DNA of 64,000 nt from an uncultured bacterium (GTDB lineage: Bacteria > Acidobacteriota > HRBIN11 > JAKEFK01). Of the stretch, positions 5,510-21,633 are shown piece by piece; the stretch's first letter is position 1; the number at the start of each line of letters is the position of its first letter. The notes under the pieces were generated by a model. It was not told the DNA's origin. It worked only from the letters and a program-made list of their open reading frames with translations, and ran no database searches. The stretch covers positions 576,001 through 640,000 of the forward strand of contig CAVZQN010000003.1 of the NCBI GenBank assembly GCA_963777505.1, in the 5' to 3' direction. Made by a program: the position numbers and the translations under genes.

Positions 5510-6694
5510 TTACTTCATCTTTGCTTCAAAGTATGAAGGAGCTACCTGTCGCATTAAGAATTTTGGAATGAGCCCCTGTCTGTAGAAATTAATTCCGGTA
5601 CGAACAAATTTCCCTTTCCATCCAGATTCTTCCGCCTCTTCTTTGATTTTTGAAAAACGATTTAACGCTTCGCGTTCAGCCATATCAAGAATCGGGGAGC
5701 CTTGATCCCATGTTTGTTGCAGTAATCGGGTCAGCCGTGGAGTTAGCATTTTTTCGATTAGACTTCGGATTTCGATCGGCTTCATACCGGCATAAAACAT
5801 AGTTCCACCTAAAACTCCTCCGCAGTTGCTGATGAAATCAGGAACACTCAAAATGCCTGCACGTTGAAGAGCCGTCTCCGATTCCGGCATAATCGGACAG
5901 TTTGCTCCAGATGAAATTATGGCAGCCTTGATGGCTCCAACATTTTCATTATTAATGCTTTCGCCGGCTCCGCACGGACATAGCAATTCCACAGGCAAGG
6001 TTAACAATTCTTCAATCGGGATTTTTTCGGCTCCCTGAAAGTCCTTAACAAAAGCGCTACCGTGTTTTTCGCTGAGGGCAATTAAGTCCGGAACATTAAA
6101 CCCTTTGTCACAAAAGATTGCTCCTTGAGATGTTGAAACGGCAACGATTTTCGCTCCCAGTTCAGAAAGAAATAATGCGACTGCAGAGCCTACTTTTCCA
6201 AATCCTTCGATCGCTGTAGTTATACCCTGGATTTTTTTTCCAATGTGATTTGCAGCAACGAGTGCGCAGACTACAACTGAGCTGGCTGTAAAAAAGCCGG
6301 ACTGTTCGCGCGTTGGCTCTTGGACGTTGTATTCCGATGTTCTAAATGTTTGATCAATTTCCGCGCGCGTTGTGCCCATATCTGAATGAGGATAAAATCT
6401 GCCATCTTTCACAACAGGTTCAATTGCCGCACAAAACTTTCGAAGCAGGGCCAACTTTTCTTGTGGCGAACCTTCCGGATTTCCTATGACTCCGGCTTTT
6501 GCACCGCCATTTGCAATTCCAACAAAACCAAACTTCAGCGTCATTTTGTACGCAAGCGTTTGGAGTTCAGAAAGCGTAACATGCGGGCTAATCCGCAGAC
6601 CGCCGTGTGAATGATTGTTAATCATCGAATCGATGACTACCCAGCCGAAAGGTTTTCGGTCATCATCCAACGCTTCATAACAAACCTTATCCAT
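5510..6694 (-). CDS. Glu/Leu/Phe/Val dehydrogenase family protein
   Basis: GGLR, MTLK, GGAK (catalytic Lys), DMGT, GFGKVG, GANCP, PDFISNCGG; start moved to MDKVCY. Confidence 0.85.
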   Translation of the reverse strand: MDKVCYEALDDDRKPFGWVVIDSMINNHSHGGLRISPHVTLSELQTLAYKMTLKFGFVGIANGGAKAGVIGNPEGSPQEKLALLRKFCAAIEPVVKDGRFYPHSDMGTTRAEIDQTFRTSEYNVQEPTREQSGFFTASSVVVCALVAANHIGKKIQGITTAIEGFGKVGSAVALFLSELGAKIVAVSTSQGAIFCDKGFNVPDLIALSEKHGSAFVKDFQGAEKIPIEELLTLPVELLCPCGAGESINNENVGAIKAAIISSGANCPIMPESETALQRAGILSVPDFISNCGGVLGGTMFYAGMKPIEIRSLIEKMLTPRLTRLLQQTWDQGSPILDMAEREALNRFSKIKEEAEESGWKGKFVRTGINFYRQGLIPKFLMRQVAPSYFEAKMK

Positions 6695-6803
6695 TAACAA
6701 TCCAATGTTTGTAGTTAGGCACGCAGCCGAGCGAACGCGAGGCAGTGCCGTAAAATGCAGAGAACGTGCCTTACTACAATCTGATGACGTCCGCGCTCCC
6801 TTT

Positions 6804-7604
6804 TCACTTCGGTTTAACAACGCGGAAAGCAATGTAGTATCCGGTCAAATATTTTGTAGGCCATCGTTGCAGTACTTCAAAGCGACTCATTATTTTCCCG
6901 GTAAATCGATTCAAAAAATCCCACTTCAAACTTTCGCCAATCCAAGTCAACAAAATTGCAGGAGCGCGAGGTGCATGCGCAACAGCTGTCACATCAGTTA
7001 CTTCCAAACCAAATTGTTCAAGTTGTCGTTTTCCATCTTTTACGCCGCATGTTGAACCAACAAAATATGGAACAAGGCCCAGACGATTTAACCAGTGAAA
7101 TGGCAAATGATTCCGCAGCCAGACAACAGGATTCGATGGATTATCAAGCGTTAACACCATAACACCACCTGGAGCTAGAACGCGTGCCAGCTCCGAAAAT
7201 GCTTTGGAAAGTTCACCTTTTTTTTCGAAGTGATCCAGCGATGAACCGGAAAGAATTCTGCCGATGCAATCGTTCCGTAACGCGACATTCCGCAAATCAC
7301 ATACAAGCATTCCCGAATTATGACCGTTCTGATTAAATCGATTCCTTGCAGCCTGAACCACGGACAGCGATCGATCTATTCCAATTGTTCTACCGCCTAA
7401 ATCCTTCAGCGGCCCTTGCGTGCTGACCGCTTCTTCAAACAAATCCGTTTTCAACGTAAATGAATTTCGTTCCGGAAGCCATGCAACAATTAATTTCCCG
7501 TACACATAACGCATGTAAGAACGCCAGACATCTATCGGAGCGCCCTGCCGAGTCTTTTCAGCAACTTTATCCCAGTACTTAGGATCCATTAATTCGGGGC
7601 TCAT
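6804..7604 (-). CDS. Class I SAM-dependent methyltransferase (divergent motif I)
   Basis: LKTDLFEE, IGID, SSLDHF, ELARVLAPGG. Confidence 0.75.
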   Translation of the reverse strand: MSPELMDPKYWDKVAEKTRQGAPIDVWRSYMRYVYGKLIVAWLPERNSFTLKTDLFEEAVSTQGPLKDLGGRTIGIDRSLSVVQAARNRFNQNGHNSGMLVCDLRNVALRNDCIGRILSGSSLDHFEKKGELSKAFSELARVLAPGGVMVLTLDNPSNPVVWLRNHLPFHWLNRLGLVPYFVGSTCGVKDGKRQLEQFGLEVTDVTAVAHAPRAPAILLTWIGESLKWDFLNRFTGKIMSRFEVLQRWPTKYLTGYYIAFRVVKPK

Positions 7605-9043
7605 TATGAAAGAGCCTTTTTTTTACGAAGTTTTGGTTTGTGTCTGGTATCCGGATGCAGAATCAAAGAATGAAGTGAAGGATATTGACCGGATCCAATC
7701 GAACGATACCAGAAGGTTAACGGATTCGATGCTGAAACATCACTTTGATAACCTGCTATTGCAGCCTGAATAAACTTAATCGGTGTTACGCTGCGCGGAT
7801 CTCCAAGAACTTTTCTGCTAATTTGTGACGGAAAAATAATGTAATAAACATTAAAGAGTAAGAAGGTCCAGAGTACCAGCGCCGTGCTAACTGCGAAAGC
7901 GGGCTTGCGCCAATACAGAATGATTTCGTAAAGCCCTATCACCCAGAATATATATAGATGGGTCAGGAATCGATTTCCGAAACTTGCGCCTGGCCATATC
8001 ACGCGAAAAAAACAAATACTGCCAACAACGCTCAAAATACAAAGCGCTGCCAGAATGGCATAAGGCTTTCGTTTAATGATTCCAACGATCAGACCGCAAA
8101 TCGACAGAATTGTCACTGGTGACCATACAAAAATTCCAATTGAAGGGTGAAATCCGATGCTTCTCAGCACCTTAAACATCCGAAAATAGTCATGAACATC
8201 ATCTGTATTCGGAACTGCATAACCAGTCGTAACAAGCCCGCCATATTGCGTTGTATTGAAACATAACTGAAGTATCAGTAGAGGAATACCCCCTGCAACA
8301 ATTTCGGAAAGTGTAATCAACATGCGTTTTTTGCCGTGTTGTCGTTCGAAATAAAGAAGCCACAAAACGATCGGCGGAATTAGAAAGACATTGATGTTTC
8401 TTAGAAGAACCGATAGTCCCAAAACAAATCCAAGCAAAACATTTCGTAGATGAGATTTTTCGACCTGAGCAGGATCTTTGCGAACGGTAATGTAAAAAAT
8501 CATAGAAACGATAAAAGTATCCGAAGCGTGAATGAATGATGGCGTTGTAAAAGTATAAAAAATGAGTGGAGTGCCACAAAAAATTGCGAAACTAATTAGA
8601 TATGCTGTGGTCTTTTCTGTGCCTACATTCAGTAGCGTTTTGTACGCAACGAAAATTGACAGAAATCCAAACAACAGCGTACCGATGAAAATAGCAAGCG
8701 TATCAGTAAAGGGAAATGTCGCGTTTTGTGCGTAGGGTCTAACTGAATTGAGCGAAGGAAAGAGGGTGCTTAACGCCAGTAGCGGAGCATAGAGGAGGGA
8801 ATAGCCGCAAGAATATTGAGATGCAATGCGATTTGTTATTGGAGATTGGAATGTTCGAAGGTCGCGATACAAATGAGATTCATTTGTAAGATCAAAATTA
8901 CCATCATGAATTAAGCTCTTTGTAAGAGCGTAATAGGTAATTCCATCATTCTGGATTACTGCTCTTCCGTAAAAAAGAGCCATCCCAAAAAAGACAAAGA
9001 GAAACACTGCCGTTGCAGGCACACGACGACTCAACGCACTCAC
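7604..9043 (-). CDS. Integral membrane GT-C type glycosyltransferase (PMT/ArnT-like)
   Basis: Multiple TM helices; DGITYY acidic motif after TM1; LRxIN, GIFVWSP, SFGNRFL motifs. Confidence 0.65.
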   Translation of the reverse strand: MSALSRRVPATAVFLFVFFGMALFYGRAVIQNDGITYYALTKSLIHDGNFDLTNESHLYRDLRTFQSPITNRIASQYSCGYSLLYAPLLALSTLFPSLNSVRPYAQNATFPFTDTLAIFIGTLLFGFLSIFVAYKTLLNVGTEKTTAYLISFAIFCGTPLIFYTFTTPSFIHASDTFIVSMIFYITVRKDPAQVEKSHLRNVLLGFVLGLSVLLRNINVFLIPPIVLWLLYFERQHGKKRMLITLSEIVAGGIPLLILQLCFNTTQYGGLVTTGYAVPNTDDVHDYFRMFKVLRSIGFHPSIGIFVWSPVTILSICGLIVGIIKRKPYAILAALCILSVVGSICFFRVIWPGASFGNRFLTHLYIFWVIGLYEIILYWRKPAFAVSTALVLWTFLLFNVYYIIFPSQISRKVLGDPRSVTPIKFIQAAIAGYQSDVSASNPLTFWYRSIGSGQYPSLHSLILHPDTRHKPKLRKKKALS

Positions 9044-10506
9044 ACTCCGGGTTCTATTCTGCGTCTATTTAAAACGAAAGAGCGCACGATTTCAATTTCT
9101 TTAGTTGTAAATTCGCCCAGTAATAGATACGCAATGATAACCACGAGTCCAAGACTGCAGAGTTTAAGAATCAAAAGTAGGCCTTCGGCATGCCAGTATG
9201 AACACGCGAAGTACATCGGTATACCGATCGCGAAGGTTCGAAGGAACGTTCCTATTGCAGGCAATGTTTTCCACATATGGTAAACAACAATCATCGAAAT
9301 AATCGCCAACAAAATTGAAAGGCATGTTGTCACGATTGCTGCTCCAAGTGCGCCAAATTTTGGAATAAATAAAAAGTGGCCAACAATTGCGAAAGGAACA
9401 CATGGACCTACAATACGAAATGTCCAATGTGGTTTTTCTGAAGCTGTAATGATTGCACTCGTTGCAGAAGAAATTGAAACGCAGAGAGCGGAAAAGATTA
9501 ACAGTGAAAGCAAAGGCGCTGTTGATGCAAAGCGATGTCCGAAGAAAAACTGAACAATTTCCAATGATGATCCCGCGACGATAGCTCCAAATGGGAGTAA
9601 AAGGACTGTAATGCGGATTGAATCCTTAATGAGTGCTTTGGCTGATGAGTGATCGCCAATTCTTAACAACCGGCTGAGGGTTGCCAGCAGTACTGGTGAA
9701 AATGATAATGCAAATATTCCTGGAAGAATCGATAGATTTTGTGCAGCTCCATAAAAACCAGCAATCGCTGTGCTGCCTCCAAGAAGTTTCAACATCAAGA
9801 TATCGAGCTTATCGAATGTTCTCATACTTAAACCAGATAAAGAAAGTGATGCAGCAATATTCCAGAAGCGGCGTGAATCAAAATCAGATTTAGCGAAAAG
9901 TGGAACTTGAATGAAGTAGCGGCCAACAATTACTTCAATACAGGATGCGGCAATACATCCCAGAATCGCGCCGTAAATCGACAGCCCCAATTGGACCAGG
10001 ATGACGATGAGAATGAATCTTCCTATCCAGCGAGCGACACTCAGATAAGCTCTTTGAGTGAAAGCGCCGATTCCAATAAGAAGCTGACGATGAGCTTGAG
10101 CTAAGCCAAAAATAGGAATGTCCAAACTGAACAGACGCAGGTAACCTGCCAGGGCTGGTTCATTCATTGCGTGTGCGATTGGGCCTGCAAGCAGAAGTAG
10201 CAAAACCATGATGAATAGGCTGAAGATCAGATAGAAGCGAGTCGTGACTCCCGCCACCGGTTTCCAGTCTTTCGTTTCGCCAACGAGCTTGATCGTAGCG
10301 CGTCCGAAAATTGTGCTAAGACTCCATTCGATCCATGCAACGATCGTGCTTGTAAGAATGAAAAGTCCAAACTCATGGGGACCAAGCCGTCGCGTAAGAA
10401 ATGAAACAATCAAAATTCCGGTAGGTAAAATCAAGAGTTCACTTGAAAGAACTCGAACGGTTCCTTTGAAGGTATGATGCCCGGTTGGCTGATCAGTCTT
10501 TTCCAT
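9040..10506 (-). CDS. Wzx-like oligosaccharide flippase (MOP superfamily)
   Basis: LTRRLGPHEFG, KLDILML...AGFYGAA, IPKFGALGAAI; ~13-14 TM segments. Confidence 0.88.
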   Translation of the reverse strand: MEKTDQPTGHHTFKGTVRVLSSELLILPTGILIVSFLTRRLGPHEFGLFILTSTIVAWIEWSLSTIFGRATIKLVGETKDWKPVAGVTTRFYLIFSLFIMVLLLLLAGPIAHAMNEPALAGYLRLFSLDIPIFGLAQAHRQLLIGIGAFTQRAYLSVARWIGRFILIVILVQLGLSIYGAILGCIAASCIEVIVGRYFIQVPLFAKSDFDSRRFWNIAASLSLSGLSMRTFDKLDILMLKLLGGSTAIAGFYGAAQNLSILPGIFALSFSPVLLATLSRLLRIGDHSSAKALIKDSIRITVLLLPFGAIVAGSSLEIVQFFFGHRFASTAPLLSLLIFSALCVSISSATSAIITASEKPHWTFRIVGPCVPFAIVGHFLFIPKFGALGAAIVTTCLSILLAIISMIVVYHMWKTLPAIGTFLRTFAIGIPMYFACSYWHAEGLLLILKLCSLGLVVIIAYLLLGEFTTKEIEIVRSFVLNRRRIEPGV

Positions 10507-10551
10507 CGAAAATAAATTATACTGGCGCTTTGTGCCGATTCGGAGTCAGCA

Positions 10552-11049
10552 ATGTTAAAGGGTTACGCCAGGGTATTTGGGGATAATATCGATACAGATG
10601 CAATCATTCCTGCTCGCTATTGTACGTCTTTCAATGAAGATCTGGGGCTCCATTTGTTTGAGGGAGAAGATCCAACTTTTTTGAAGCGATTGAAAAAAGG
10701 GGACATGATCGTTGCTGGTTCAAACTTTGGATGTGGCAGCGCAAGAGAGCACGCACCTGTTGCAATAAAGTCCGCAGGCATTTCGGCAGTCATTGCGAAA
10801 TCATTCAGCCGCACTTTTTTCCGGAATGCAATCAACATCGCGCTTCCAGTATTGGAATTGAGTGATGCGAATGAAATTCGCGAAAATGATCTGATTGAAA
10901 TTGATACCGATCAAAATGTGATTCGTAACCTGACGAATTCAAAGGAATACATTGCGGCGCCTTTTCCTGAATACATAAAGCAGGTCATTGATGCAGGCGG
11001 CATCATCGAATTTGCCCGAAGACGGTTGGCGGAAAAAAAGAGTTCATAG
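10552..11049 (+). CDS. leuD: 3-isopropylmalate dehydratase/homoaconitase small subunit (LeuD/HacB type)
   Basis: DNIDTDAIIP, NFGCGSAREHA, SFSRTFFRNAIN. Confidence 0.88.
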   Translation: MLKGYARVFGDNIDTDAIIPARYCTSFNEDLGLHLFEGEDPTFLKRLKKGDMIVAGSNFGCGSAREHAPVAIKSAGISAVIAKSFSRTFFRNAINIALPVLELSDANEIRENDLIEIDTDQNVIRNLTNSKEYIAAPFPEYIKQVIDAGGIIEFARRRLAEKKSS

Positions 11050-11056
11050 GAAGTTA

Positions 11057-12397
11057 ATGGCTGCTAATCTCTTCAAAAAGTTGTACGGCAGTTCAGTCAT
11101 AGCAAGAAATCTTCCGCATCAAACAAACGTTCCATTCCTGCCGCGTGAAGAATTACATCGACTGCGCGACAAGCGTCTTCGGGAAATGATTGACTATGCC
11201 GCAAATACGGTTCCATATTACAGAACCTTTTTCAAAGAACACAAAATTGATCCATCCGAAATCAAGACCGTTGATGATCTGATCCGGCTCCCACTCATTG
11301 ATAAACAAACAGTTCGTAACGCGCCTCGCACTTTTGTCTCTGAATCAAAGGAAGGCAAGGAATCGATTCAATTTGTTACAAGTGGTACGACAGGTAAGCC
11401 GCTTGAAATTTATCATGATGTGAAATCACTACTTGCGAATATTGCTTTTGGAGAAAGAGAGAAAGATGTTGTCAAAAAGCTTCTTACAGGTTTCAGCTAC
11501 AAGGAGCTTTATTTTGGCTACACATCATCCACAATACAAAAGGTAAGAGACATTTATAATGAATGGACTTTTTCCGCCTCTCAAGAACAAAAACTATTTC
11601 TTTCCGTTCTTCAGCCTTTGGACGAGATTCTGGATGGGATCAATCGTTTTAAGCCTACTTTAATTGTGGGCTATGGCTCGTTTTTGGAAATATTATTCCG
11701 CACAATCCATCAAAGAGAAATTCAAATTCATTTGCCGAAACTATTGATCTATGTAGCAGAAGCAATGACACCTGAAGGAAGAAGGTTGATTGAGGACTCT
11801 TTTACGATTCCGGTGCTTTCAAGATACAACGCCGTAGAAATTTTCAAAATTGGATATTTTTGCGAAGCGCGTAAAGGGTTCCACGTTCATGAAGATCTTT
11901 GTCACCTAAGGATTGTTGATTCGGCGAAAAAGACGGCAAAAACAGGTGAGAAGGGAGAAGTTGTTATTTCGAATTTCGTAAATAAAGGTACGGTTTTGCT
12001 GAATTATCGTTTAGGAGATATTGCTGCAATAATGGATGAAGAATGTCCTTGTGGTAGAACCTTCCGGATTCTATCTGAATTAGAAGGGCGAACAGAAGAT
12101 ATTGTTTTTCTTCCTGATGGAAGTTTTGTCCATCCACGCGCAATTTGGAGTGTATTTAAAGACAGTCACGGAGTCCTTCAGTATCAGCTTATTCAATATG
12201 AACCACAGCGTTTTGAATTGAAACTCGTCACCGTTGATAAGAAATCATATGACGCTGTGATTGAAAAGATTTTAAGAGAGTTGAAAGCTCTATTCGGAAT
12301 TTCTTGCTCTATAGAAAGTGACTTTTATACCGAAATTAATAGAGAAGGAAAATTCCGGCCGGTTATCTCTCATTGCAGGCCTAGCGAATACAAATAA
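11057..12397 (+). CDS. Phenylacetate-CoA ligase/CapK-like adenylate-forming enzyme
   Basis: TSGTTGKP P-loop, YNAVE, LLNYRLGD, CPCGR, EGRTED; start moved to ATG 11057. Confidence 0.85.
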   Translation: MAANLFKKLYGSSVIARNLPHQTNVPFLPREELHRLRDKRLREMIDYAANTVPYYRTFFKEHKIDPSEIKTVDDLIRLPLIDKQTVRNAPRTFVSESKEGKESIQFVTSGTTGKPLEIYHDVKSLLANIAFGEREKDVVKKLLTGFSYKELYFGYTSSTIQKVRDIYNEWTFSASQEQKLFLSVLQPLDEILDGINRFKPTLIVGYGSFLEILFRTIHQREIQIHLPKLLIYVAEAMTPEGRRLIEDSFTIPVLSRYNAVEIFKIGYFCEARKGFHVHEDLCHLRIVDSAKKTAKTGEKGEVVISNFVNKGTVLLNYRLGDIAAIMDEECPCGRTFRILSELEGRTEDIVFLPDGSFVHPRAIWSVFKDSHGVLQYQLIQYEPQRFELKLVTVDKKSYDAVIEKILRELKALFGISCSIESDFYTEINREGKFRPVISHCRPSEYK

Positions 12398-12431
12398 GAG
12401 TTCATAAGTTCCTTCCTCAGGGTTCAGCTAG

Positions 12432-13139
12432 TTACATACGTTTTGCGACAACAAAAAAATTTCGTCCAGCAAACTGTACGCCTGGAAGGTTGCTGAAACG
12501 CTCTAGGGATTTTGAAATACGAAGAGAAGGGATTGGATTTCTACCGGGATTCAGAAAAAAATTGTAGAAGCCATAGTCTACGATTTCAAAGCCGTTGCTT
12601 CTTAAATCTTTTTTTAGTTCTGCAAGAGTGTAAAGATGAAATGACTCTTTCGATCTTGGTTTTAGTCTCGCGTTCATTTTAAGCAGGAGACTCGACTTGT
12701 TTGTGCACGTAAAAACTAAAAATCCATCGGGTTTTAATATGCGGAAAGCTTCTTTATAAAATTTTTCTGGTGATTCGAAACATCCCATGACTGATACTGC
12801 GATGACTCCGTGAAAGCCTTTCGCATGAAAAGGAAATTGTTCAGCGGTGCCCTGTAACAAGTTCAAATGTTCGAAGCGTTTCTTTGCTGACGCGATCATG
12901 CTTCGATCATGATCGAGGCAAATTAACTTGAGTCCTTGAGCGGATAGATCGTTAGCGAGATGTCCGGTTCCACAGCCAACATCAAGCCAATATTGTCCTT
13001 TACTGCTACGGGACAAACTTATTTCTTGAGCGATTTTTGTGCCGCGATGAAAAATCCATTGTGCGGGATCAAGTTTGGCTGAATCATAGATTTGAGCCCA
13101 CTCTTCTGGATCGAATTTATCGCTAAATTTTCCGTGCAT
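12432..13139 (-). CDS. Class I SAM-dependent methyltransferase
   Basis: WLDVGCGTG motif I, RILKPDG. Confidence 0.9.
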   Translation of the reverse strand: MHGKFSDKFDPEEWAQIYDSAKLDPAQWIFHRGTKIAQEISLSRSSKGQYWLDVGCGTGHLANDLSAQGLKLICLDHDRSMIASAKKRFEHLNLLQGTAEQFPFHAKGFHGVIAVSVMGCFESPEKFYKEAFRILKPDGFLVFTCTNKSSLLLKMNARLKPRSKESFHLYTLAELKKDLRSNGFEIVDYGFYNFFLNPGRNPIPSLRISKSLERFSNLPGVQFAGRNFFVVAKRM

Positions 13140-13170
13140 CCATCCATCAATCCGTTAATCCACTCATTTA

Positions 13171-13247
13171 GCAGGCAAGGATGCCTGCGGCCCGAAATGC
13201 GGACAAGATGTCCGCGCTCCGTAATGCGGACGAGACGCTTGCGCTCC
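13171..13247. repeat. Three tandem REP-like palindromes (GCGGxCAAGATGxCCGCGCTCC family)
   Basis: Units at 13171-13194, 13198-13220, 13225-13247; relatives at 47655-47710 and 54687-54709. Confidence 0.75.
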
Positions 13248-13259
13248 GAAAGCGGTCTC

Positions 13260-14823
13260 TTATTGCTTAATCAGAGTTTGCATTTTAAAGCCGCTTGATA
13301 CTTGTGGCTTTTCGCGAATGATTTGTAGCGTATCCGCTTGCTTCCAAAAATGGGACGCGATGTTCGCTCCAGGACCTTTGCTGCGTAAGTTATTCAAAAT
13401 TGCATTAGCAAAATATTTTTCATCCCGGGATCTTCACATGCGGACTGATTTTAATCATTAATTTTACCAATCCGTCTTCATTTTGACTTTCTATATACTG
13501 ATAATCATCCGGCGCCCCACCGACACTTTGTATCAATTCTGCTATAACTTCATCCAGCACTGACCCAGGCAGAGTCATTCCTTCATATGTGAACTTATCA
13601 AAACTTCGAACTTGTGAAACAAGCAAGTTCATTCCTGTATTTCCAAACAAACAAGCGCAAGTTCTTTCACGAAGTGTTCCATGATCCCCAAGTTCTGTAT
13701 TGAGTAAAACCTTGGGAGTATTTTCGGATAGCGTTGTAAACAATAAGGCCTTCACATACTTATTGTCGGAAGCGGCATGCCGTTCGCGCTGAATCAACGC
13801 CATACGATCCGTGTAAACGTGCATCGAGTCGGCTTCGTCAGCATGATTGCATCCTCCTGCGATCAATCCAGATTCTGTTGCAACAAAACGTGCAAATGCT
13901 TTTACACCAGCCGATTGAAGATATTTGAATCTTCGATCCGTTAATGCCTCACCGCCTGTGAACATGGTACAACCACTGATGTCTATTCCTTTTTCAATTG
14001 CCGCTTGTACAATTCGAATCGCGGAGCTTGCAAAAGTTTTTACAATACAAAGTCCTTTTTCCTTGAGTTGTTTTTCGATCCAAATTGCAATTCGATCTGC
14101 CGAAGACATTTCAATGAATTCAGGTGGTGAAACTGGTGTCCCAAGAATTTGGCTGCATCGAATAACGTATTGCATCTTTGCGCGGCTTTTGAAATCAGGC
14201 TGTAGTTGAGAAAACCATTTGTCGGGAGGCTTTCGAAATCGCAAATGCATCAACAGATTGTGGATTCCTGAAATGCTTGGAAGAGAAGGAAGCCAGAAAG
14301 CTGAGGGGGCATTGGATAATCCATGAGTCTCATAAAGCAACATTTCATTTGCAGATTCTTCGGATATAAAGGCCCAATCGTAAAGCATTCTGGTTGGTGT
14401 AGAGGTTGTGCCGCTTGTCGAAGCACGAATGCCTTCCGGTAAGAGACGAGGATTATCGAAATCTGATTCTCTAGTCTCAATAGTCAGTCCATTCCTGCAA
14501 ATTGGAATCTGTGATTTGAATTCTTCCCGCGTTAGATAAACACCATCATCCCTCAATGTTTCAAGGCTAGCTTGTAACCCAATGGAACGAATGCTTTTTT
14601 CTAAATCACTGTAGTGACAATCAACACTGGACAAAAGTTTGCTGTATGGACTCTGAGGGTTGTCATAGATTAATTTTTTACAAGCTTCCAGGAATCTTTT
14701 TTCTTTGTTTTCAATTCGAAGCTTAATTTCCTGAATCGCTTGATCACGGAGAAGGGGCCTGCGTAAATAGGGTAAGAATCCTAAAGCAACTTTCAATTCG
14801 CGATGGATCTGGCTGATGCGCAT
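13260..14823 (-). pseudogene. Divergent PaaK/CapK-like ligase with an apparent 1-nt frameshift near the 3' end
   Basis: STSGTT, FTGGE, FVATESG, LLNTELGD, CACLF motifs. ORF stops at 13420, but removing one base at ~13423-13427 continues it as KIPDEKYFANAILNNLRSKGPGANIASHFWKQADTLQIIREKP...IKQ* to 13260. Confidence 0.7.
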
Positions 14824-14825
14824 TG

Positions 14826-15683
14826 TTACGATTCAGCCATCACTTTATCCAGAAAATTCAAATCAACATAATCCGTTGGTATTTTCTTTATGTACCCTAA
14901 CTCTTTCATTAAAAACAGTACTTTCTCTCTCGCTTGTGTATTTCGCACTGCTCCAACATCAGGCTGGTTCCGTAAGAGCGCTTGGTGGATGAAGCGTGGA
15001 TTAATTCCAATATGACGGTATGAAATTTCGGCAGTTTCTTCAGGGTTTTGTTTAACAAACTTCCATCCGTGAACGAAACCTCGAACGACCCGTTCAACAA
15101 TCTCAGGATTATTGTTTTTAAAGGGAACCGTTGTTGAAAGTGAGCATCCTGGTGCTCCCGGCCAGACATCACCGGTCCGTTTTACAATCCTTCCAATTCC
15201 AAGTAGCTCAAGCATGGTTGCATACGGTTCAACCATTGAAGCCGCATCCACACCTTCTCCGAAAAACGAGATGATTGCGCCATCTCCCGAAGGTTGACGG
15301 ATTAGATCAACATTTTTCCATCCGAGGCTTTCCATCAAACCCATTGCTGTGAGATCTTTCATTCCGCCGCGAAGCGGAACCGCAACTTTCTTAACTTCAG
15401 TAATATCCAGATTCTTACGTACAACAATCGCAGCTTCTTCAAATCCCGAACCAGCGACTACGACAAGTGGAATGTCATTTACTTCAGCCGCAGCAACACG
15501 TGTCCATGGAATTACTGCAAATTGGCTCTCGCCACTCATTAACTTAACAGGAACCATCCACGCAGTTGGCTCAATATTGATTTCTGAATCGATGTCTTCT
15601 TCTTGAAAATATCCTTTTGCATGAGCTACATAAGCCGGTGTTTGACATACACCACGTAATAATGAGAAACGAACTTTCGTCAT
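14826..15683 (-). CDS. SsuA/TauA/THI5 (NMT1)-fold substrate-binding-like protein lacking a signal peptide
   Basis: PAYVAHAKGYF, VDAASMVEPY, NPEIVERVVRG...NPEE pattern; no hydrophobic N-terminus; only 27 bp upstream to the previous stop. Confidence 0.75.
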   Translation of the reverse strand: MTKVRFSLLRGVCQTPAYVAHAKGYFQEEDIDSEINIEPTAWMVPVKLMSGESQFAVIPWTRVAAAEVNDIPLVVVAGSGFEEAAIVVRKNLDITEVKKVAVPLRGGMKDLTAMGLMESLGWKNVDLIRQPSGDGAIISFFGEGVDAASMVEPYATMLELLGIGRIVKRTGDVWPGAPGCSLSTTVPFKNNNPEIVERVVRGFVHGWKFVKQNPEETAEISYRHIGINPRFIHQALLRNQPDVGAVRNTQAREKVLFLMKELGYIKKIPTDYVDLNFLDKVMAES

Positions 15684-15710
15684 TTGCGTTTTCTCCCCAG
15701 GTGATTCGGG

Positions 15711-17168
15711 TTAATTGCTTTTTAAAGTCTCAGCAATTCCATCTTGTGTTAATTTAAGCAAGCCGGGAGCTATATCAAGCAATGAAATGTTTTGCCTTTC
15801 AAATTTTTGCACGATGCTAGGCCCGGCACAAGCAAAAAATCCAGTTTCTGTATGATTATTCGTTCGGTAAAGTTTCGGTTTTTGCTGTGTCAATTCCGTT
15901 TCAGGATGTTGAACTCGCTCCAAAAAGTACGAAGTTGGCCTCCACTTTATGAATATGTCAGGCAGGTCATTAGGAGGTCCTGTATGGAAAATATCTGCAG
16001 TTCGAATTACTTTTTCCACCGCAGGGAGATTCGATACCGGATCTATCAGTTGTTTAAGATTGGTTTCTAATTCATTCAACAACTGCGTGTATTCATTTCC
16101 TTGTTTCACAATTCCTTGAGGTTCGCGTCCTTCCAGGTTGACGCGAAGCAGTCCGGTGTAGTTTGAAGGAAGAGCAAAGGCTCTTGTCTTTCCCCAGTTC
16201 GTGTTCCTGCCAAACAAATCCGAAAGAAAGCGTTGTCGAAGTTTCGGTGGCAAAACGGAACCAGCAGCGCTGCGCAATGTTTCTGGAATGACCTTTTGCG
16301 CAAACGCGCCTGGTTTGAATGAAGGCACATGATTTTTATGTTTGATCTGGTATCCCAGTTTCAAACAGAACGCTTGTGTCAGCCCACCTGTTGGATTCTG
16401 ATCTGATATTCCCATCGGGCTAACGATAAAAATGTTTGCATTCTGAGGCAATTGTTGAAGCATGTGATTGAACTGAAGATCAATCTCTTGATAAACATTG
16501 CGGAGTGGATTTGGGATACTTCCGCTATTATTGCGATATTTCCAAAATTGATGTCCTGCAATATGGGATTCTGAAAACACAATCACGATCAAATCGAATT
16601 GCTCTTGCTGCAAAAACTGGCAGGCGAATGCTCCTTTCTTTTGTATCCTTTTTATTAGCAGTTGATAAATCCGGTTATCGTCTTCCTCTGAGGCGCTGAA
16701 CTTTTCTCCTGCGTTTATCTGCGGCCCGGCAGTCTTGAGGAATTCGGAAGGGTTGCTGGATGGAGAATCCATCGCATTGTGTATCGCCCAATTTGACAAT
16801 TGATATCCCGTTAGTCCTTTGATGGGATAAACCTCAGGCGCATCAATGATCAATATCTTCGATTGCAAGGATTGCCAAAACGGATAAGCTTTCGAATTAG
16901 CGAGGTTGACAGGCCTGACATCATAGGTTCCTGGGACGAGTTGGCGGAAGTAGTAGTAGCCATGATCTGATCGTGACATTCCGCTGAAAAGAGAAAGCCA
17001 TAAACCATGCGCAGAAATCATTTCATGATCAGAAATTTCGCCGCAGTTCCCATTCCGGATAATTGAAGCTACATTCGGAAGATAGCCTTCATTGCTCCAA
17101 CGTTTTAAGAATTCGGGAACACCAGCATCGATGCCAAAAACCACAAGAGGAATGTTTTTGATTTTCAA
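15711..17168 (-). CDS. Alkaline phosphatase superfamily / type I phosphodiesterase-like protein
   Basis: VFGIDAG, LPN, WLSLFSG...HG, HIAGHQFW, VNLEGREPQG, PDI, H..GFF..GP. Confidence 0.8.
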   Translation of the reverse strand: MKIKNIPLVVFGIDAGVPEFLKRWSNEGYLPNVASIIRNGNCGEISDHEMISAHGLWLSLFSGMSRSDHGYYYFRQLVPGTYDVRPVNLANSKAYPFWQSLQSKILIIDAPEVYPIKGLTGYQLSNWAIHNAMDSPSSNPSEFLKTAGPQINAGEKFSASEEDDNRIYQLLIKRIQKKGAFACQFLQQEQFDLIVIVFSESHIAGHQFWKYRNNSGSIPNPLRNVYQEIDLQFNHMLQQLPQNANIFIVSPMGISDQNPTGGLTQAFCLKLGYQIKHKNHVPSFKPGAFAQKVIPETLRSAAGSVLPPKLRQRFLSDLFGRNTNWGKTRAFALPSNYTGLLRVNLEGREPQGIVKQGNEYTQLLNELETNLKQLIDPVSNLPAVEKVIRTADIFHTGPPNDLPDIFIKWRPTSYFLERVQHPETELTQQKPKLYRTNNHTETGFFACAGPSIVQKFERQNISLLDIAPGLLKLTQDGIAETLKSN

Positions 17169-18640
17169 TCCTGACGCGCAAAAAGGCCAAGCGCTTTTAC
17201 AAGCCTTGATTCAACGGGAAATCTTACATCCATATTTCTGACGCGATACCGCGCCAACGGTGAATAAAGCTTTGCAAGTCCAACCACAATTGGATTGGTT
17301 TTTCTATAAGGATTGACAAAGTTCTCACCGAGAAACATTAACGGGAAATCAAGATTCTCAATCAGGTTTTTTGTACTGGGCGTAATCCATGTTGATTCTT
17401 TTGGAATATTGCGGAAATTAAACTTTGCCCATTCTTCAAGGCGATCCGGTTCTTTCAATCCGCATTGAAGCGCGACGGAATACAATTCAGTGCCGGGATA
17501 GGGTGTATATATATTGAAAGTTTTCGCAGACTTCGGATTTTCTCTGACTAGTTGGTCAGCTAGTTGAATGCTTTGTTGAAATTCATCGGGTGTTTCTGTC
17601 GGCATTCCCATCATGAATAAATAAAGCGGGATGATGGGATAAGGCGCGATCTTACGGTTGGCTTCAACTACTTCTTCGACACTGACATCTTTCTTAATTA
17701 GGTCCAGCACCCGTTGGCTTCCCGATTCAATTCCAACCGTTAATCTCTTCACTCCGGCTTTGACCAAAAGATCCAAGAACTCTTTATCCATCTTGCAGAT
17801 CGTATCGGCACGGATTTGCAGCTTACTGATTGTGATATTTAGATTCGCCTGAACGATTCCCTCCAGAATTCCATACGCTCTTTTCATATCAATGAAGAAA
17901 TGATCGTCCGTAAATAAGAATCCGTGAATGTTGTAATCTCGAATGATTTGTTTCAATTGATCCAAAACAGTTTCAGGCTGCATGGCGCGCCATTTCCTTT
18001 GGTGCATTACCGGATCCCAGCAAAAACTGCAACGAAACGTGCATCCGCGGCTTGAATTAAATGTGATGTGATCAACACCAAACAAAGTCCGCCTGTATTT
18101 ATCCATGTCCACAAGATGATAAGAAAGAGATGGTTCTGAATTAATATTTACAAACGGACGGCTTCCTGTGAATTGAATTTTGCCATCCTGTTTATATCCA
18201 ATCCCATTCACTGTGCTCAGTGGTGTTCCTGATTGAAATGCTTTCACCAGTTCTTCAAAAGTTTCTTCACCTTCACCGACAACAACAACATCTATATACG
18301 GATTTTTTAAGGTCTGTTCCGGAAGTAAACTTGCATGAATTCCACCCCAAACAACTGGTGTGTCAGGGTATTTTTCTTTAAATGTTTTCGATGCTTCAAG
18401 AGCGCGCAATATTTGTGGACCAGTCATCGAGGTAACGCCAAGACAGATCGGTTTAGTAGACATCGCCTGCCGAAATTCCACTTCCCAATTGGGATCCGCA
18501 AATTGATCAACGATTTTGATTTTGTATCCCTGTCGATCAAGACGAGTTGCAGGACAAAGCACACTTAACGGCAATTCAACGCGTCGATGTGCTTGAAAGC
18601 CGGCACGCGGAGCGGGATTAAACAGGACAACATCAATCAC
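17165..18640 (-). CDS. Cobalamin-binding radical SAM enzyme (class B methyltransferase-like)
   Basis: B12 domain VVWGGIHAS...VVGEGE; SRGCTFRCSFC (CxxxCxxC); GIESGSQ; PYPGTEL. Confidence 0.92.
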   Translation of the reverse strand: MIDVVLFNPAPRAGFQAHRRVELPLSVLCPATRLDRQGYKIKIVDQFADPNWEVEFRQAMSTKPICLGVTSMTGPQILRALEASKTFKEKYPDTPVVWGGIHASLLPEQTLKNPYIDVVVVGEGEETFEELVKAFQSGTPLSTVNGIGYKQDGKIQFTGSRPFVNINSEPSLSYHLVDMDKYRRTLFGVDHITFNSSRGCTFRCSFCWDPVMHQRKWRAMQPETVLDQLKQIIRDYNIHGFLFTDDHFFIDMKRAYGILEGIVQANLNITISKLQIRADTICKMDKEFLDLLVKAGVKRLTVGIESGSQRVLDLIKKDVSVEEVVEANRKIAPYPIIPLYLFMMGMPTETPDEFQQSIQLADQLVRENPKSAKTFNIYTPYPGTELYSVALQCGLKEPDRLEEWAKFNFRNIPKESTWITPSTKNLIENLDFPLMFLGENFVNPYRKTNPIVVGLAKLYSPLARYRVRNMDVRFPVESRLVKALGLFARQD

Positions 18641-19239
18641 TAAACACCTCTTCTTGGCAGATTGAAAATTTTTCCTATATGCCCATACTGTTCGTCTGCT
18701 AAACGGGCAAGCGGACGTAACAAATTCTCTTGAATCTCTCCATCCATATATAGAGCATCATCAATATGGAATAACAATACTTTTGCAATAACTAAAGAAT
18801 GATTCGATTCACCGAGGGTTAATATGTATTCCATTCGGCACTCCATTTGAATTGGAGATTCAGAAATTCGCGGTGCCTTTACAATTTCAGCAGGGATCGC
18901 AGTGATGCCAGCTTTTTCAAATTCGCTGACCGTGGGCGGATAGTCAGACGATGTTGTATTTACAGCCAGAGCGTGACTTTCCGTGACAATGTTGACAACA
19001 AACTCACCGCAGAATTCAATATTTTTTAACGTATCTTTCTTTTCGCCATCACGCCTTGCAATCGAAACTGCGATCATCGGAGGTTTTGTTGCAACAAACG
19101 TGAAACAACTGAATGGCGCAACATTGTTGATCCCGTTTTCTCCAACAGTTGAAATCCAGGCAATAGGACGCGGGACTACACATCCTTTCAAGAGGCGGTG
19201 AGCGTTATCGTCATCTAATCGACTGGGATCAATCCGCAT
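18640..19239 (-). CDS. Flavin reductase-like FMN-binding protein
   Basis: VVPRPIAWIST, NVAPFS, KDTLKNI..GEFVVN, ESPIQMEC. Confidence 0.9.
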   Translation of the reverse strand: MRIDPSRLDDDNAHRLLKGCVVPRPIAWISTVGENGINNVAPFSCFTFVATKPPMIAVSIARRDGEKKDTLKNIEFCGEFVVNIVTESHALAVNTTSSDYPPTVSEFEKAGITAIPAEIVKAPRISESPIQMECRMEYILTLGESNHSLVIAKVLLFHIDDALYMDGEIQENLLRPLARLADEQYGHIGKIFNLPRRGV

Positions 19240-20420
19240 TTTTCTTCAACATATTTACGAAGCTCTGTTGTTAATGAACATTCTGCCGGAATCACAAATT
19301 CAGGTACCGCGGCACTTTCGGGTAAGGGACCTGCTCCGCCAGTTAAACAGCAAAGGACAGACTCACCGCGGCAGATCAAACCGTCGTTGATCGCTTTCAA
19401 TATTCCAGTACCCGCAAGAAGCCCGGCCTTTTCAATGTAATCTGCTTTGCCATTCACGCGGATGACGGTCGGTTGTATGCCTGCCTTTGTAAGAAGTTCG
19501 AGATAATCATCAAGATATTTTTCAAAATCTGCGACACGAACCGCCATCATATGTCCGCCTACAACTTGCAATATCTCATTGAGTAGGGGATAGGTTTGTG
19601 CCGGATTTGCGTTATAAAGCGCGGGTTCTATGAAAGGCTCACCAGTGCCATCAAAATTTGTGGATGCTAAATTATCCCGTTTGTTATTCCATGCTTCAAC
19701 AATTGGTGAAACTCTTGCTTGTTGTATTCCCAAAAATTTTGGAATCCATTGCGGATCAATTTCTCCTGATTGCGAAAGTTCTCGCAAGGTTGTAAAAACT
19801 CCAATCGGACCGAACCCTGCACATACTGCCTGACCGAGCCAATGAAATCCGTGCTTCATTTGTCTCATCGATTCAGCAATGAACAAACTACGGAAACGGG
19901 CTGAAAGGAGCCTCCATTCCATTTTTGGGATTACAGGTATATTGCAGAATGAAGCAAAAAGAGTTGCTGCTTCTTTTACCCTTTGATCCTGTCCTTGAAT
20001 CGCAATGAGATGTGCGCCAGGACGTTCAAAGAGTCTTCCATCCAGTTTGAATAGAGTATTTGTTGGGCAGAAAAAGAAAGTTTCCAGGCCAATTTTGCCG
20101 GCGTAATCTGTTAATGCGACACCAGTATTTGCACCGGATGAAAATGCAACTTGTTTGTATCCTGAATTTTTGCAAATCGCTGTTGTAAGACAACCATCAA
20201 GCGACTTATATGTTCCCGTTTTCATTCCACTCGATTCATCCAGTAAGAAAAGCTGAACGCCATGATATTCACCAAGTTCCAGGATCCGTGAACCCTCTTG
20301 CTGTGTAGTGAGTTGAATCGCATCAATCAATCCATCGGAAAGCAAAGCAGAGGCATAGCGCAAAATTAGTCTGCTGCCTGAACTATATGAAGGATCAATC
20401 TCAAATCGAAGCTGATTCAT
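19215..20420 (-). CDS. Fold-type II PLP enzyme, threonine synthase/cysteate synthase-like
   Basis: MKTGTYKSLDG (PLP Lys), SSGANTG, QAVCAGFG, C-terminal LTGG; start moved to MNQLRF. Confidence 0.72.
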   Translation of the reverse strand: MNQLRFEIDPSYSSGSRLILRYASALLSDGLIDAIQLTTQQEGSRILELGEYHGVQLFLLDESSGMKTGTYKSLDGCLTTAICKNSGYKQVAFSSGANTGVALTDYAGKIGLETFFFCPTNTLFKLDGRLFERPGAHLIAIQGQDQRVKEAATLFASFCNIPVIPKMEWRLLSARFRSLFIAESMRQMKHGFHWLGQAVCAGFGPIGVFTTLRELSQSGEIDPQWIPKFLGIQQARVSPIVEAWNNKRDNLASTNFDGTGEPFIEPALYNANPAQTYPLLNEILQVVGGHMMAVRVADFEKYLDDYLELLTKAGIQPTVIRVNGKADYIEKAGLLAGTGILKAINDGLICRGESVLCCLTGGAGPLPESAAVPEFVIPAECSLTTELRKYVEEKCGLIPVD

Positions 20421-21543
20421 GTTCTTGCACAGTTCTAATAATGTCGATGATTTCTTCTTCCGTACATCCTTCTCGTTCTTTAAGAATCGCCAGAAGTTTC
20501 GGAATTTCTTCGGGTGTGACATCTTTACCGCTCTTTTGCAAAAAGGGCTGAAGTGCGGCAGTGTAATCGACCGGCAAATTGAAATGGTACGTGCGATGCG
20601 TACCAATCTGTTCCGGTGGAAATGGTTCAAAGGCACTCGGATTACCGCCCGCAATACAACGGATGTGCATCACAGGGAGATGAGCAAAGCAGTAATCACC
20701 TACGATTGGTTTAGTAGGCGAATTTTTCAAACCTGTAATTCGTTCGGTAAGCTCTGCTAATTCGCGAAGCCGATGCGTATCAAGGCCTGTTGAGTATTCA
20801 AATAAATTTTCAAGAGCAAGTGCTACTTCTTCAAGCGCAGCATTTCCAGCTCTTCCACCGATTCCATTAACAGCAACATCCACCGCTGTTGCGCCGCCTT
20901 CAATGGAAGCCAGTGAGTTCGCTGTAGCCATGCCGTAATCATTATGACAGTGCACAAGAATGGGCAATTGCGAAGTGTTCAGAATGTCAGAAACAAGAGA
21001 CCGCATCTTGGAAGGAATCATGATTCCGACAGAATCGTAAACGACTAAACGCGTTACGCCGAGATCTTTCAGCGGCTTTACGATTTTAAGCAAGCGTTCA
21101 ATTGGTGCGCGTGTAGAATCAATAAGTCCTACTCCAATTTGCAAGGATGTTTTCCGCGCGTATTCAAGCACAGTTTCCAAACGGTCTTGAATTTCTTCAA
21201 CGCGCATTCCGTACAAAGCTGGATCGGACAACAAATAATCAGACGTTGGACCAAGAACATCGATCCGGTGGATGTCATGTTCCGCTGCAAGGTCGATATG
21301 TTTCTTCCAGCGCTGCGTATAAAAAGGAATCAGAGCAGTCGCACGGATAGCAAAGCCATTCTCTTTTATGAGATCGGCAACTTCTAGGCATGCGGCAACC
21401 CCGTCAGGCAGGCCGATTTCAATTTCTGGAACACCAATATCATTCAGAAGTCTAATAAATTCGCGCTTCTGTTCTAATGTGATATTGGAACCAGGCATTT
21501 GAATGCCTTCACGCAGAGTCGTGTCACGGAGTAGAACTCTCAC
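20401..21543 (-). CDS. LeuA/homocitrate synthase-like DRE-TIM acetyl-CoA condensing enzyme, no regulatory domain
   Basis: DTTLREGIQ, HCHNDYGMATAN, GIGGRAGNA, PIVG; GTG start 21543 after GGGGA. Confidence 0.85.
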   Translation of the reverse strand: MRVLLRDTTLREGIQMPGSNITLEQKREFIRLLNDIGVPEIEIGLPDGVAACLEVADLIKENGFAIRATALIPFYTQRWKKHIDLAAEHDIHRIDVLGPTSDYLLSDPALYGMRVEEIQDRLETVLEYARKTSLQIGVGLIDSTRAPIERLLKIVKPLKDLGVTRLVVYDSVGIMIPSKMRSLVSDILNTSQLPILVHCHNDYGMATANSLASIEGGATAVDVAVNGIGGRAGNAALEEVALALENLFEYSTGLDTHRLRELAELTERITGLKNSPTKPIVGDYCFAHLPVMHIRCIAGGNPSAFEPFPPEQIGTHRTYHFNLPVDYTAALQPFLQKSGKDVTPEEIPKLLAILKEREGCTEEEIIDIIRTVQEHESASI

Positions 21544-21633
21544 AGTCTTCCCCTGAGCCGCTATTATATTCGTTTTTGAGCTAATGAGCCCCACACCAGT
21601 CTAGAGCCGTGGACAACTCAAAGCAGATCCGCC

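Follow-up and report, generated by a model that had tools for sequence, protein, structure and literature searches.

A conserved flavoprotein, PLP-enzyme and LeuA-like cassette in an acidobacterial gene cluster that probably makes a methylated amino or keto acid

The window analyzed here is a stretch of 64,000 nucleotides from the genome of an uncultured bacterium of the Acidobacteriota (assembly GCA_963777505.1, contig CAVZQN010000003.1, positions 576,001 to 640,000). Fourteen open reading frames (ORFs) occupy positions 5510-21594 of the window. Three of them encode a flavoprotein, a pyridoxal 5'-phosphate (PLP) enzyme related to threonine synthase, and a relative of LeuA; together they form a cassette, or triad, that recurs in at least nine phylum-level groups. 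We read the cluster as one dedicated pathway, put together from modules that also travel separately, in which an acid would be made, modified, and joined to a glycan flipped by Wzx. Judging from sequence comparisons, we give this reading a probability of about 0.45. The product is probably a methylated amino or keto acid that, in this genome, is likely bound to a sugar polymer at the cell surface. That the genes are linked is an observation; every chemical step is one that we infer from the families involved.

From 21594 downward on the minus strand, the genes encode the LeuA-like enzyme, the PLP enzyme, a Flavin_Reduct-type flavoprotein, a B12-binding radical S-adenosylmethionine (SAM) enzyme, a 485-aa protein, an NMT1-family protein, a 467-aa protein (ligase 2), and a SAM methyltransferase (MT2). 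LeuD and a PaaK/F390-type ligase (ligase 1) follow on the plus strand, and the minus strand resumes with a Wzx flippase, a GT-C-like membrane protein, a second methyltransferase (MT1), and an amino-acid dehydrogenase. The tight packing reported in the initial annotation was borne out: from the LeuA-like gene to the gene of ligase 2, neighbors overlap by 1-25 nt or are separated by gaps of 2-27 nt; the Wzx, GT-C-like, and MT1 genes overlap by 4 and 1 nt, and the dehydrogenase gene belongs to the same overlapping or near-overlapping run. A gap of 280 nt separates the ligase 2 gene from MT2 (13140-13420). This gap contains a palindromic repeat of about 55-60 nt (13166-13225) that resembles repetitive extragenic palindromes, with 45 copies elsewhere in the same genome and about 35 in a genome of the same genus (G001). 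Families were called with Pfam and NCBIfam profiles and their curated cut-offs. Most identities given in the initial annotation were upheld by these profiles; the label "PLP synthase" was not, and the AlkP-family, CapK-like, and GT-C assignments came out weaker, as described below.

We gathered 61 loci in a scan with an alignment of four of the PLP enzymes. They comprise 27 loci of Acidobacteriota type, 10 from Desulfobacterota or "delta" lineages, 7 from Gemmatimonadota, 5 from Binatia, 3 from Planctomycetota, and one each from Dadabacteria, Riflebacteria, Nitrospirales, and Thermoleophilaceae; the other 5 fall outside the tally of these nine named groups. Genes were counted up to about 10 kb from the PLP gene, using blastp (E<1e-8) for the LeuA-like, dehydrogenase, B12 radical SAM, MT1, ligase, AlkP-like, Wzx, NMT1, and MT2 families, and phmmer (E<1e-3) for nitroreductase, Flavin_Reduct, stand-alone enzymes of the nonribosomal peptide synthetase (NRPS) type with adenylation, thiolation, and thioesterase domains (A-T-TE), GT2, GT4, LeuD, LeuC, and the window-type GT-C protein. 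A flavoprotein gene stands beside the PLP gene at all 61 loci, and a LeuA-like gene follows it at 58; one of the three misses (L099) is cut by a contig end. The PLP enzyme and the flavoprotein are the constant partners of the LeuA-like enzyme. The dehydrogenase was found at 30 of the 61 loci, the B12 radical SAM enzyme at 28, and MT1 at 21. Each of the two PaaK-type ligases was found at 8 loci, the AlkP-like gene at 6, Wzx at 5 (blastp), and NMT1 and MT2 at 2 each. At least one of the B12 radical SAM, MT1, and dehydrogenase genes extends the triad at 35 loci, and an A-T-TE gene does so at 17; only two loci carry both types of extension, and the loci with the dehydrogenase are mostly without A-T-TE.

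The most complete counterpart of the cluster is at locus L052, where 10 of the 14 families lie on one strand. The genes there encode, in order, MT2, NMT1, ligase 2, a nitroreductase in the flavoprotein position, the PLP enzyme, the LeuA-like enzyme, the B12 radical SAM enzyme, MT1, the dehydrogenase, ligase 1, a GFO-type oxidoreductase, a GT4 glycosyltransferase, and the AlkP-like protein. Locus L070 is similar, with 9 of the 14 families. Because the dehydrogenase and MT1, which sit in the Wzx operon of the window, neighbor the LeuA-like, PLP, and B12 radical SAM genes in many genomes, both ends of the range belong together.

Distribution within the phylum gave the same picture. Among 400 other genomes of the phylum, the PLP enzyme was present in three (G123, G159, and G217, the same places as loci L087, L089, and L090), and in these its neighbors include homologs of the dehydrogenase, the LeuA-like enzyme, the B12 radical SAM enzyme, MT1, and a PaaK-type ligase. 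Orthologs of the B12 radical SAM enzyme with at least 52% identity occurred in the same three genomes only; matches in 48 further genomes, a tally that takes in the unpublished genome G058, on which no conclusion depends, did not exceed 38% identity. Since close relatives are without the PLP enzyme and without close homologs of the B12 radical SAM enzyme, the cluster is not a housekeeping locus. Since the set recurs in other phyla, the linkage of most of its families goes far beyond chance.

That the 14 genes are simply tightly packed, unrelated housekeeping genes is therefore hardly credible. The composition of the region is ordinary, and LeuD and the adjacent sigma-54 regulator are not conserved partners, both of which would suit chance neighbors; against this, the families recur together in nine phylum-level groups, co-occur genome by genome, and are missing from close relatives. 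For the core this explanation is contradicted; only LeuD, the regulator, and perhaps the GT-C-like gene can still be explained in this way. The co-occurrence in other genomes that the initial annotation had predicted was found for most of the families and failed for LeuD. Its proposal of a single unusual biosynthetic cluster likewise held in that both ends of the range belong together, a nearly whole set is present at L052 and L070, and glycan genes accompany many of the loci; centering the cluster on LeuA and LeuCD did not hold, and a GT-C protein of the window's type was found at none of the 61 loci. We found no description of the gene combination in the papers that could be searched.

The cluster lies in a stretch (about 2750-33400) that spans about 30 kb here, while in G001 only about 10 kb separate the same two anchors. 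No match to the cluster DNA was obtained in G001, and the PLP enzyme was not found there either. The window's genome (G000; 5.2 Mb, 14 contigs, 95.9% complete) has a GC content of 0.446, compared to 0.41-0.44 in the region, whose tetranucleotide distance is at the 49th percentile and thus ordinary for the genome. We considered a recent transfer into the genome; composition gives it no support, and the difference from G001 could reflect either gain or loss.

The LeuA/homocitrate-synthase-like enzyme (20401..21594, minus strand, 397 aa) matched HMGL-like with 194.7 bits. Its NCBIfam score (NF002085, 267.6 bits) is below the cut-off of 517, and it falls below every equivalog cut-off for LeuA, CimA, and NifV. 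The metal-binding motifs LREG and HCHND are readable in the sequence, which is 59-60% identical to the copies at loci L044 and L045. Three HMGL-like genes are present in G000: the cluster copy, a LeuA/homocitrate-synthase-like gene of 407 aa on contig C6, and an HMG-CoA lyase. The five relatives examined within the family have two each, of the C6 and HMG-CoA lyase kinds, without the cluster copy; all five also have LeuB-type orthologs with 72-78% identity. Because these relatives carry only the other two HMGL-like kinds and a LeuB-type gene, the LeuA-like gene in the cluster is an extra gene, and not the organism's sole gene of this type. The C6 gene belongs to a short LeuA/homocitrate-synthase-like form found family-wide and is followed by an ArgE/DapE/LysK-type deacylase gene (C6:88628-91000; L005 1414-3755); this pair hints at an alpha-aminoadipate route to lysine in the family.

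The PLP enzyme (19215..20420, minus strand, about 401 aa) probably starts at Met79 of its ORF, at position 20420. It matched PALP with 38.5 bits and is a threonine-synthase/cysteate-synthase-like PLP-dependent enzyme. Scores against the corresponding NCBIfam models are low (ThrC, 52.4 bits with a cut-off of 303; cysteate synthase, 39.2 bits with a cut-off of 324.9), and in the PDB a profile of the family found only threonine synthases and cysteate synthase (E 4e-12 to 1e-6). K72 is invariant in the alignment. The enzyme is rare, with 124 representative clusters at E<=1e-30 among 1.84 billion proteins.

The flavoprotein of the window (18640..19239, minus strand; PF01613, 91.2 bits) is of the Flavin_Reduct type, which fills this position at 2 of the 61 loci; the other 59 have a nitroreductase. 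In a sister branch of the PLP family (P0081, P0095, P0097, and P0115), a flavoprotein domain resembling acyl-CoA dehydrogenase is fused to the N-terminus of the enzyme. A further sequence, P0050, reads as a run-through of nitroreductase into PLP enzyme. Because three unrelated flavoprotein folds fill the position, one of them as a fusion, the flavoprotein is probably a catalytic partner of the PLP enzyme. A predicted complex of the PLP enzyme and the flavin reductase scored 0.00 against a mark of 0.32, a result that counts neither for nor against the pairing.

The B12-binding radical SAM enzyme (17165..18640, minus strand) matched PF02310 with 60.1 bits and PF04055 with 88.6 bits, both above cut-off. 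Its best NCBIfam scores were to BchE (175.6 bits) and HpnJ (142 bits), and it is below every curated cut-off. The copies at the 28 loci are 60-75% identical across phyla; this identity, together with the co-occurrence at the level of genomes, indicates that the enzyme forms a group of its own that is tied to the cassette. In G159, a pair of B12 radical SAM genes lies beside ABC-2, HlyD, and OEP export genes, which give no clue to the substrate. Both methyltransferases belong to class I: MT1 (6804..7604, minus strand; Methyltransf_11, 41.8 bits) usually follows the B12 radical SAM gene at the loci that have it, and homologs of MT2 (12432..13139, minus strand; Methyltransf_11, 72 bits) adjoin the NMT1 and ligase 2 genes at L052 and L070.

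The amino-acid dehydrogenase (5510..6832, minus strand; ELFV_dehydrog, 136 bits) is a glutamate-dehydrogenase-like protein of the Glu/Leu/Phe/Val type, likely starting at Met47, at position 6694. With 162 bits against a GdhA cut-off of 750 it is not a glutamate dehydrogenase equivalog. It has His in place of the Lys of the AKGGIR motif of Thermotoga maritima glutamate dehydrogenase, the residue that binds the side-chain carboxylate, and keeps the Lys of GGxK.

The A-T-TE genes bear on the nature of the product. Stand-alone enzymes of this type follow the cassette in Terriglobia, Gemmatimonadales, and others (L072 12261-15041 and 16 further loci). In adenylation domains, the Asp of the FD motif binds the alpha-amine of the substrate. 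The A4 motif of the enzyme at L072, the one locus examined, has Ala where LgrA has this Asp, a hint that the product of the triad is without a free alpha-amine. A 2-oxo acid or other non-amino acid product is suggested by the combination of these observations: A-T-TE follows the cassette at 17 loci, the Asp is missing at L072, and dehydrogenase loci are mostly without A-T-TE. The recurrence of the dehydrogenase and ligase pair without the cassette, with an Ldh_2 enzyme, points to a 2-oxo acid as well.

The initial annotation had made keto-acid chain elongation part of the organizing chemistry. In such a version, the LeuA-like enzyme, LeuC and LeuD, and a LeuB-type dehydrogenase would extend a 2-oxo acid by one carbon, and amination and ligation would follow. 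We consider this quite unlikely. LeuD (10552..11049, plus strand; TIGR02087, 178 bits, above the cut-off of 109) ends 7 nt before the likely start (11057) of ligase 1. It is a doubtful member of the cluster, as is LeuC (28916..30220, minus strand; NF001614, 576 bits, above cut-off), which lies outside the range of the cluster. No LeuC gene is present within 5510-21594; the one at 28916-30220 is the only unfused LeuC of the genome and is 18 kb from LeuD, on the opposite strand and beyond genes for regulators and a kinase. There is no LeuB-type gene in the cluster, PF00180 being found above cut-off only on contigs C11, C1, and C4. Neither LeuD nor LeuC was detected at any of the 61 PLP-seeded loci or at 29 loci seeded with the ligase. 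In favor of elongation, apart from the 7-nt spacing, LeuC and LeuD are extra genes that the relatives do not have, and both lie in the stretch that is about 30 kb here and about 10 kb in the same-genus genome. The only LeuC/LeuD homolog of the relatives is a LeuD-LeuC fusion of 652-712 aa, encoded in a single frame and 33-37% identical to the window proteins. G000 has this fused gene as well (C4:1672642-1674343; L003, around position 2952), 84-86% identical to the same-genus copy; compared to that intact copy, it changes frame at residue 190/191, which may reflect a pseudogene or an assembly error. The LeuD and LeuC genes of the window are additional genes. They may have taken over leucine or lysine synthesis from the broken fused gene, or they may act in the cluster. 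The conserved pathway most likely includes neither LeuD nor the distant LeuC.

Two ligases would activate the product. Ligase 1 (11057..12397, plus strand) is of the PaaK/F390-synthetase type, with scores of 134 bits to FlxY, 131 bits to DVU_1553, and 126 bits to PaaK, all below cut-off. It is 53% identical to the copy at L052, where it adjoins the dehydrogenase. The 29 ligase-seeded loci, of which 12 do not reach a length of 4 kb, include cases in which the dehydrogenase, MT1, and ligase 1 stand together in the absence of the triad, with an Ldh_2-family dehydrogenase between them. At L154 (6899-11347), L157 (6071-11389), L144 (1547-6286), and L145 (3429-7808), such an Ldh_2-family gene lies between the dehydrogenase and ligase 1, and the cassette is missing. 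Ligase 2 (13420..14823, minus strand, 467 aa) is a divergent adenylate-forming ligase. The initial annotation had called it CapK-like; it has no Pfam or NCBIfam match, and a profile of eight orthologs identified it as a remote relative of PaaK (E 1.5e-7). Homologs of ligase 2 were also found without the cassette (L014 and L015), adjoining a fusion of isochorismatase and aldehyde dehydrogenase.

The 485-aa protein (15711..17168, minus strand) appears to be cytoplasmic, without a hydrophobic segment, and has no Pfam or NCBIfam match. In a feature search of a protein atlas, 29 of 30 matches were clusters carrying PF01663; a profile search of the PDB reached only E 0.16-0.8. With Foldseek it matched nucleotide pyrophosphatase/phosphodiesterase (NPP) family proteins and phosphonoacetate hydrolase (E 2e-6, template modeling scores of 0.31-0.40), starting from a poor model (mean predicted local distance difference test 52.7). 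The protein thus looks like a member of the alkaline phosphatase superfamily (NPP/PhnA-like), an assignment that we offer as a lead; the AlkP-family label in the initial annotation is favored by the atlas search and weakened by the missing profile matches and the quality of the model. Homologs with about 40% identity stand without the cluster in G002-G005; the tally among relatives takes in G035, on which no conclusion depends. Locus searches with ligase 2 and with the AlkP-like protein gave homologs outside the cluster, and both families have other settings as well. The NMT1/THI5/SsuA-fold protein (14826..15683, minus strand; PF09084, 48.8 bits) has no signal peptide at its N-terminus. It is 61% identical to the copies at L052 and L070, which adjoin ligase 2 and MT2.

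These two proteins invite a different explanation, a heteroatom pathway (phosphonate or phosphinate, organoarsenical, or sulfonate) in which the radical SAM enzyme would methylate P or As and the heteroatom group would be the business of the AlkP-like and SsuA-like proteins. Phosphonoacetate hydrolase is among the best Foldseek matches of the AlkP-like protein, and weak NCBIfam scores, all below cut-off, point the same way (PhpK, 96 bits; the Sden_1168 P-methylase, 95; ArsL, 83; cysteate synthase, 39; SsuA family, 69). However, BchE and HpnJ outscore the P- and As-methylases, and the AlkP-like and NMT1 genes are at 6 and 2 of the 61 loci only. The genome, at its completeness of 95.9%, has no phosphoenolpyruvate (PEP) mutase (best score 39.6 bits against a cut-off of 319.55). 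We regard a heteroatom product as very improbable. The absence of a PEP mutase had been noted in the initial annotation along with that of NRPS and polyketide synthase (PKS) genes, and no NRPS or PKS domain was found among the 14 genes.

The connection to a glycan comes from the genes at the other end of the cluster. Wzx (9040..10506, minus strand) is a MOP flippase with eleven hydrophobic segments and 62.3 bits to Polysacc_synt_3, for which the cut-off is 23. Its homologs at the 5 loci are 38-44% identical, and MOP-like flippases were found by profile iteration at 14 of the 61. The adjacent polytopic membrane protein (7604..9043, minus strand), called GT-C in the initial annotation, has nine hydrophobic segments; its family scores are sub-threshold (TMEM260-like, 18.5 bits with a cut-off of 24.2; LA_3751/2, 50.4 bits with a cut-off of 200), so that we call it probably a GT-C-type glycosyltransferase. 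Other GT-C-like proteins are encoded at 5 loci, GT2 enzymes at 9, and GT4 enzymes at 5; at least one glycan gene (flippase or glycosyltransferase) is present at 24 of the 61 loci, a figure obtained as a union by hand of two counts. At L055, genes for GT2, GT87, a flippase, and MT1 are directly upstream of the cassette.

The same core could also make a free or otherwise linked small molecule (a solute, a signal, a metallophore, or a building block of a lipid or peptide), with Wzx and the GT-C-like protein as mere neighbors. The use of A-T-TE at 17 loci is compatible with this, as are the many loci with a B12 radical SAM, dehydrogenase, or MT1 gene that have neither a glycan gene nor a ligase gene nearby, the export genes beside the B12 radical SAM genes of G159, and the occurrence of ligase 2 next to the isochorismatase fusion. 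On the other hand, MT1 and the dehydrogenase share an overlapping run with Wzx and the GT-C-like gene, and L055 repeats this order; flippase-like genes at 14 of the 61 loci far exceed our own estimate, made without a computed control, for a random 20-kb stretch. We consider a free molecule somewhat unlikely and prefer attachment to a glycan.

For the glycan-attached product, the steps might be as follows. The triad of a flavoprotein, presumably using flavin mononucleotide, the ThrC/cysteate-synthase-like PLP enzyme, and the LeuA-like enzyme would produce a carboxylic acid of an unusual kind, with a 2-oxo acid as the likeliest candidate. O-Phospho-amino acids are the substrates of threonine synthase and cysteate synthase, and the PLP enzyme may likewise act on a phospho-amino acid. 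The LeuA-like enzyme would use an acyl-CoA or a 2-oxo acid to form a carbon-carbon bond, and the flavoprotein would perform a reduction. The glutamate-dehydrogenase-like enzyme could then aminate the 2-oxo acid to an amino acid, and methyl groups would be added by the B12 radical SAM enzyme and by MT1 and MT2. The two PaaK-like ligases would adenylate the carboxylate or carboxylates and couple the product to an acceptor, which in this genome would be a lipid-linked glycan that Wzx flips and that the GT-C-like protein would handle outside the membrane. A heavily methylated acyl group of the glutamate or 5-oxoproline type, as in O-antigen chemistry, came to mind as the specific product and was set aside, since none of the observations bears on it.

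Several observations weigh against this proposal. The LeuA-like protein of the window (397 aa) is only 30-37% identical to the form of about 315 aa found at most loci, and with so low an identity the chemistry may differ between the two forms. Among the NCBIfam scores of all members, only that of LeuD is above cut-off, and no curated family names any member. Only 7 nt separate LeuD from the ligase gene, which would speak for some role of LeuD here. The GT-C protein of the window's type is at none of the 61 PLP-seeded loci, and Pfam identified neither an initiating phosphoglycosyl transferase nor Wzy among the 14 genes, to which the scan was confined, no search having been aimed at either. For the 35 loci with a B12 radical SAM, dehydrogenase, or MT1 gene, a first count showed 16 at which both glycan genes and PaaK-type ligases are missing within 10 kb, so that glycan attachment is not general. 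The reading of the A domain comes from a single locus. Finally, many loci end at contig ends, which makes the counts lower bounds, and related genomes are not independent of each other.

Upstream of the LeuA-like gene, the minus strand encodes a sigma-54 activator with an FHA domain (21634-23052; Sigma54_activat, 184 bits; FHA, 56 bits), which ends 39 nt before that gene. The sigma-54-type promoter motif TGGCAC-N5-TTGC is matched without mismatches at 23081-23095 (minus strand), 29 nt upstream of the activator start; this is the only exact match in the window, and matches with up to two mismatches show no excess (61, compared to 58.6 expected by chance). It is possible that the activator is the regulator and the head of the operon. 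Elsewhere it was found weakly at 2 of the 61 loci, and the flanking regulatory genes are not conserved partners of the cassette. A Ser/Thr kinase with TPR repeats (23199-25559) and a second sigma-54 activator (25552-26937) are next to it; together with the promoter match, the kinase and activators look like a phosphorylation-controlled sigma-54 switch. Farther out, 27069-28268 encodes a glutathione-independent formaldehyde dehydrogenase (766.8 bits, above cut-off), in the stretch that is absent from the same-genus genome. On the other side of the cluster, an acylating acetaldehyde dehydrogenase (2762-4597; EutE-like, 596 bits), extended at its C-terminus to 611 aa, is beside a gene for a BMC-H shell protein (4647-4964); no other microcompartment genes were found near 2762-4964, and this region has no DNA match in the same-genus genome.

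Six conserved core families fall below the curated NCBIfam cut-offs and were not found described, yet nine or more phylum-level groups keep them together, and many of these groups are poorly cultured lineages of soil and sediment. The six genes, taken from L052 or from the window, make a well-defined target for expression. The pairing of a fold-type II PLP enzyme with three flavoprotein folds, one of them in fused form, speaks for chemistry outside the known relatives of threonine synthase, and the very high conservation of the B12 radical SAM group suggests a demanding reaction. Genome-mining rules that look for NRPS, PKS, or PEP mutase could overlook a pathway of this kind. Should the product decorate glycans, Acidobacteriota, Desulfobacterota, Gemmatimonadota, and others would have a surface chemistry that is new. 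A bolder version, which we think unlikely, is that the triad is a new route to a non-proteinogenic building block, one that gene transfer has carried across phyla of soil and sediment. With the B12 radical SAM enzyme, the building block would be C-methylated at an unactivated carbon while a free molecule; it would then decorate surface glycans and, in other lineages, be fed to an NRPS-like enzyme. On this version, both the class of glycan decoration and the class of substrate for B12 radical SAM enzymes would be new.

We compared the cluster to known systems. Wzx-dependent loci for surface glycans carry ligases of the "CapK" or F390-synthetase type, and the window resembles them in having a MOP flippase, a membrane protein similar to glycosyltransferases, and PaaK-type ligases in one cluster. 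It differs in its acid-making cassette, which we did not find described from such loci in the papers that could be searched, and in that no initiating transferase or polymerase was identified among its 14 genes. The family match of its ligases is to PaaK. Stand-alone NRPS-like A-T-TE enzymes activate 2-oxo acids; 17 of the cassette loci carry such an enzyme, at L072 with an A4 motif that has no Asp, and the window itself is without one.

Cystargolide and belactosin clusters share with the window a step related to isopropylmalate synthase, SAM-dependent methyl transfer, and carboxylate-activating ligases, and they make a warhead or decoration from an acid similar to those of primary metabolism. 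To our knowledge, unlike the window, they are actinobacterial peptide pathways without a ThrC-like enzyme, a flavoprotein, a B12 radical SAM enzyme, or a flippase. These beta-lactone pathways (PMC10776993, PMC11408123) are among the closest known systems.

The B12 radical SAM enzyme has the B12-binding and radical SAM domains of the class B methylases PhpK, Fom3, GenK, and HpnR, and of the non-methylating enzymes BchE and HpnJ; unlike these, it is in a conserved group of its own, tied to the cassette and below all cut-offs. Sets of LeuA, LeuCD, and LeuB elongate acids in the leucine, coenzyme B, homophenylalanine (HphA-D), and phosphonomethylmalate routes. The window is like them in its LeuA-like enzyme with metal-binding motifs and in the LeuD gene beside a ligase gene; however, isomerase and dehydrogenase are not co-conserved with the LeuA-like enzyme at any of the 61 or 29 loci, and its regular companions are a PLP enzyme of fold-type II and a flavoprotein. 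This PLP enzyme has fold-type II relatives in the PDB, threonine synthase and cysteate synthase, and shares their conserved PLP lysine. In contrast to them, the lysine motif of the window family is TGTxKSxDG, where the ThrC-like fusions have TFKD, and the enzyme is always paired with a flavoprotein.

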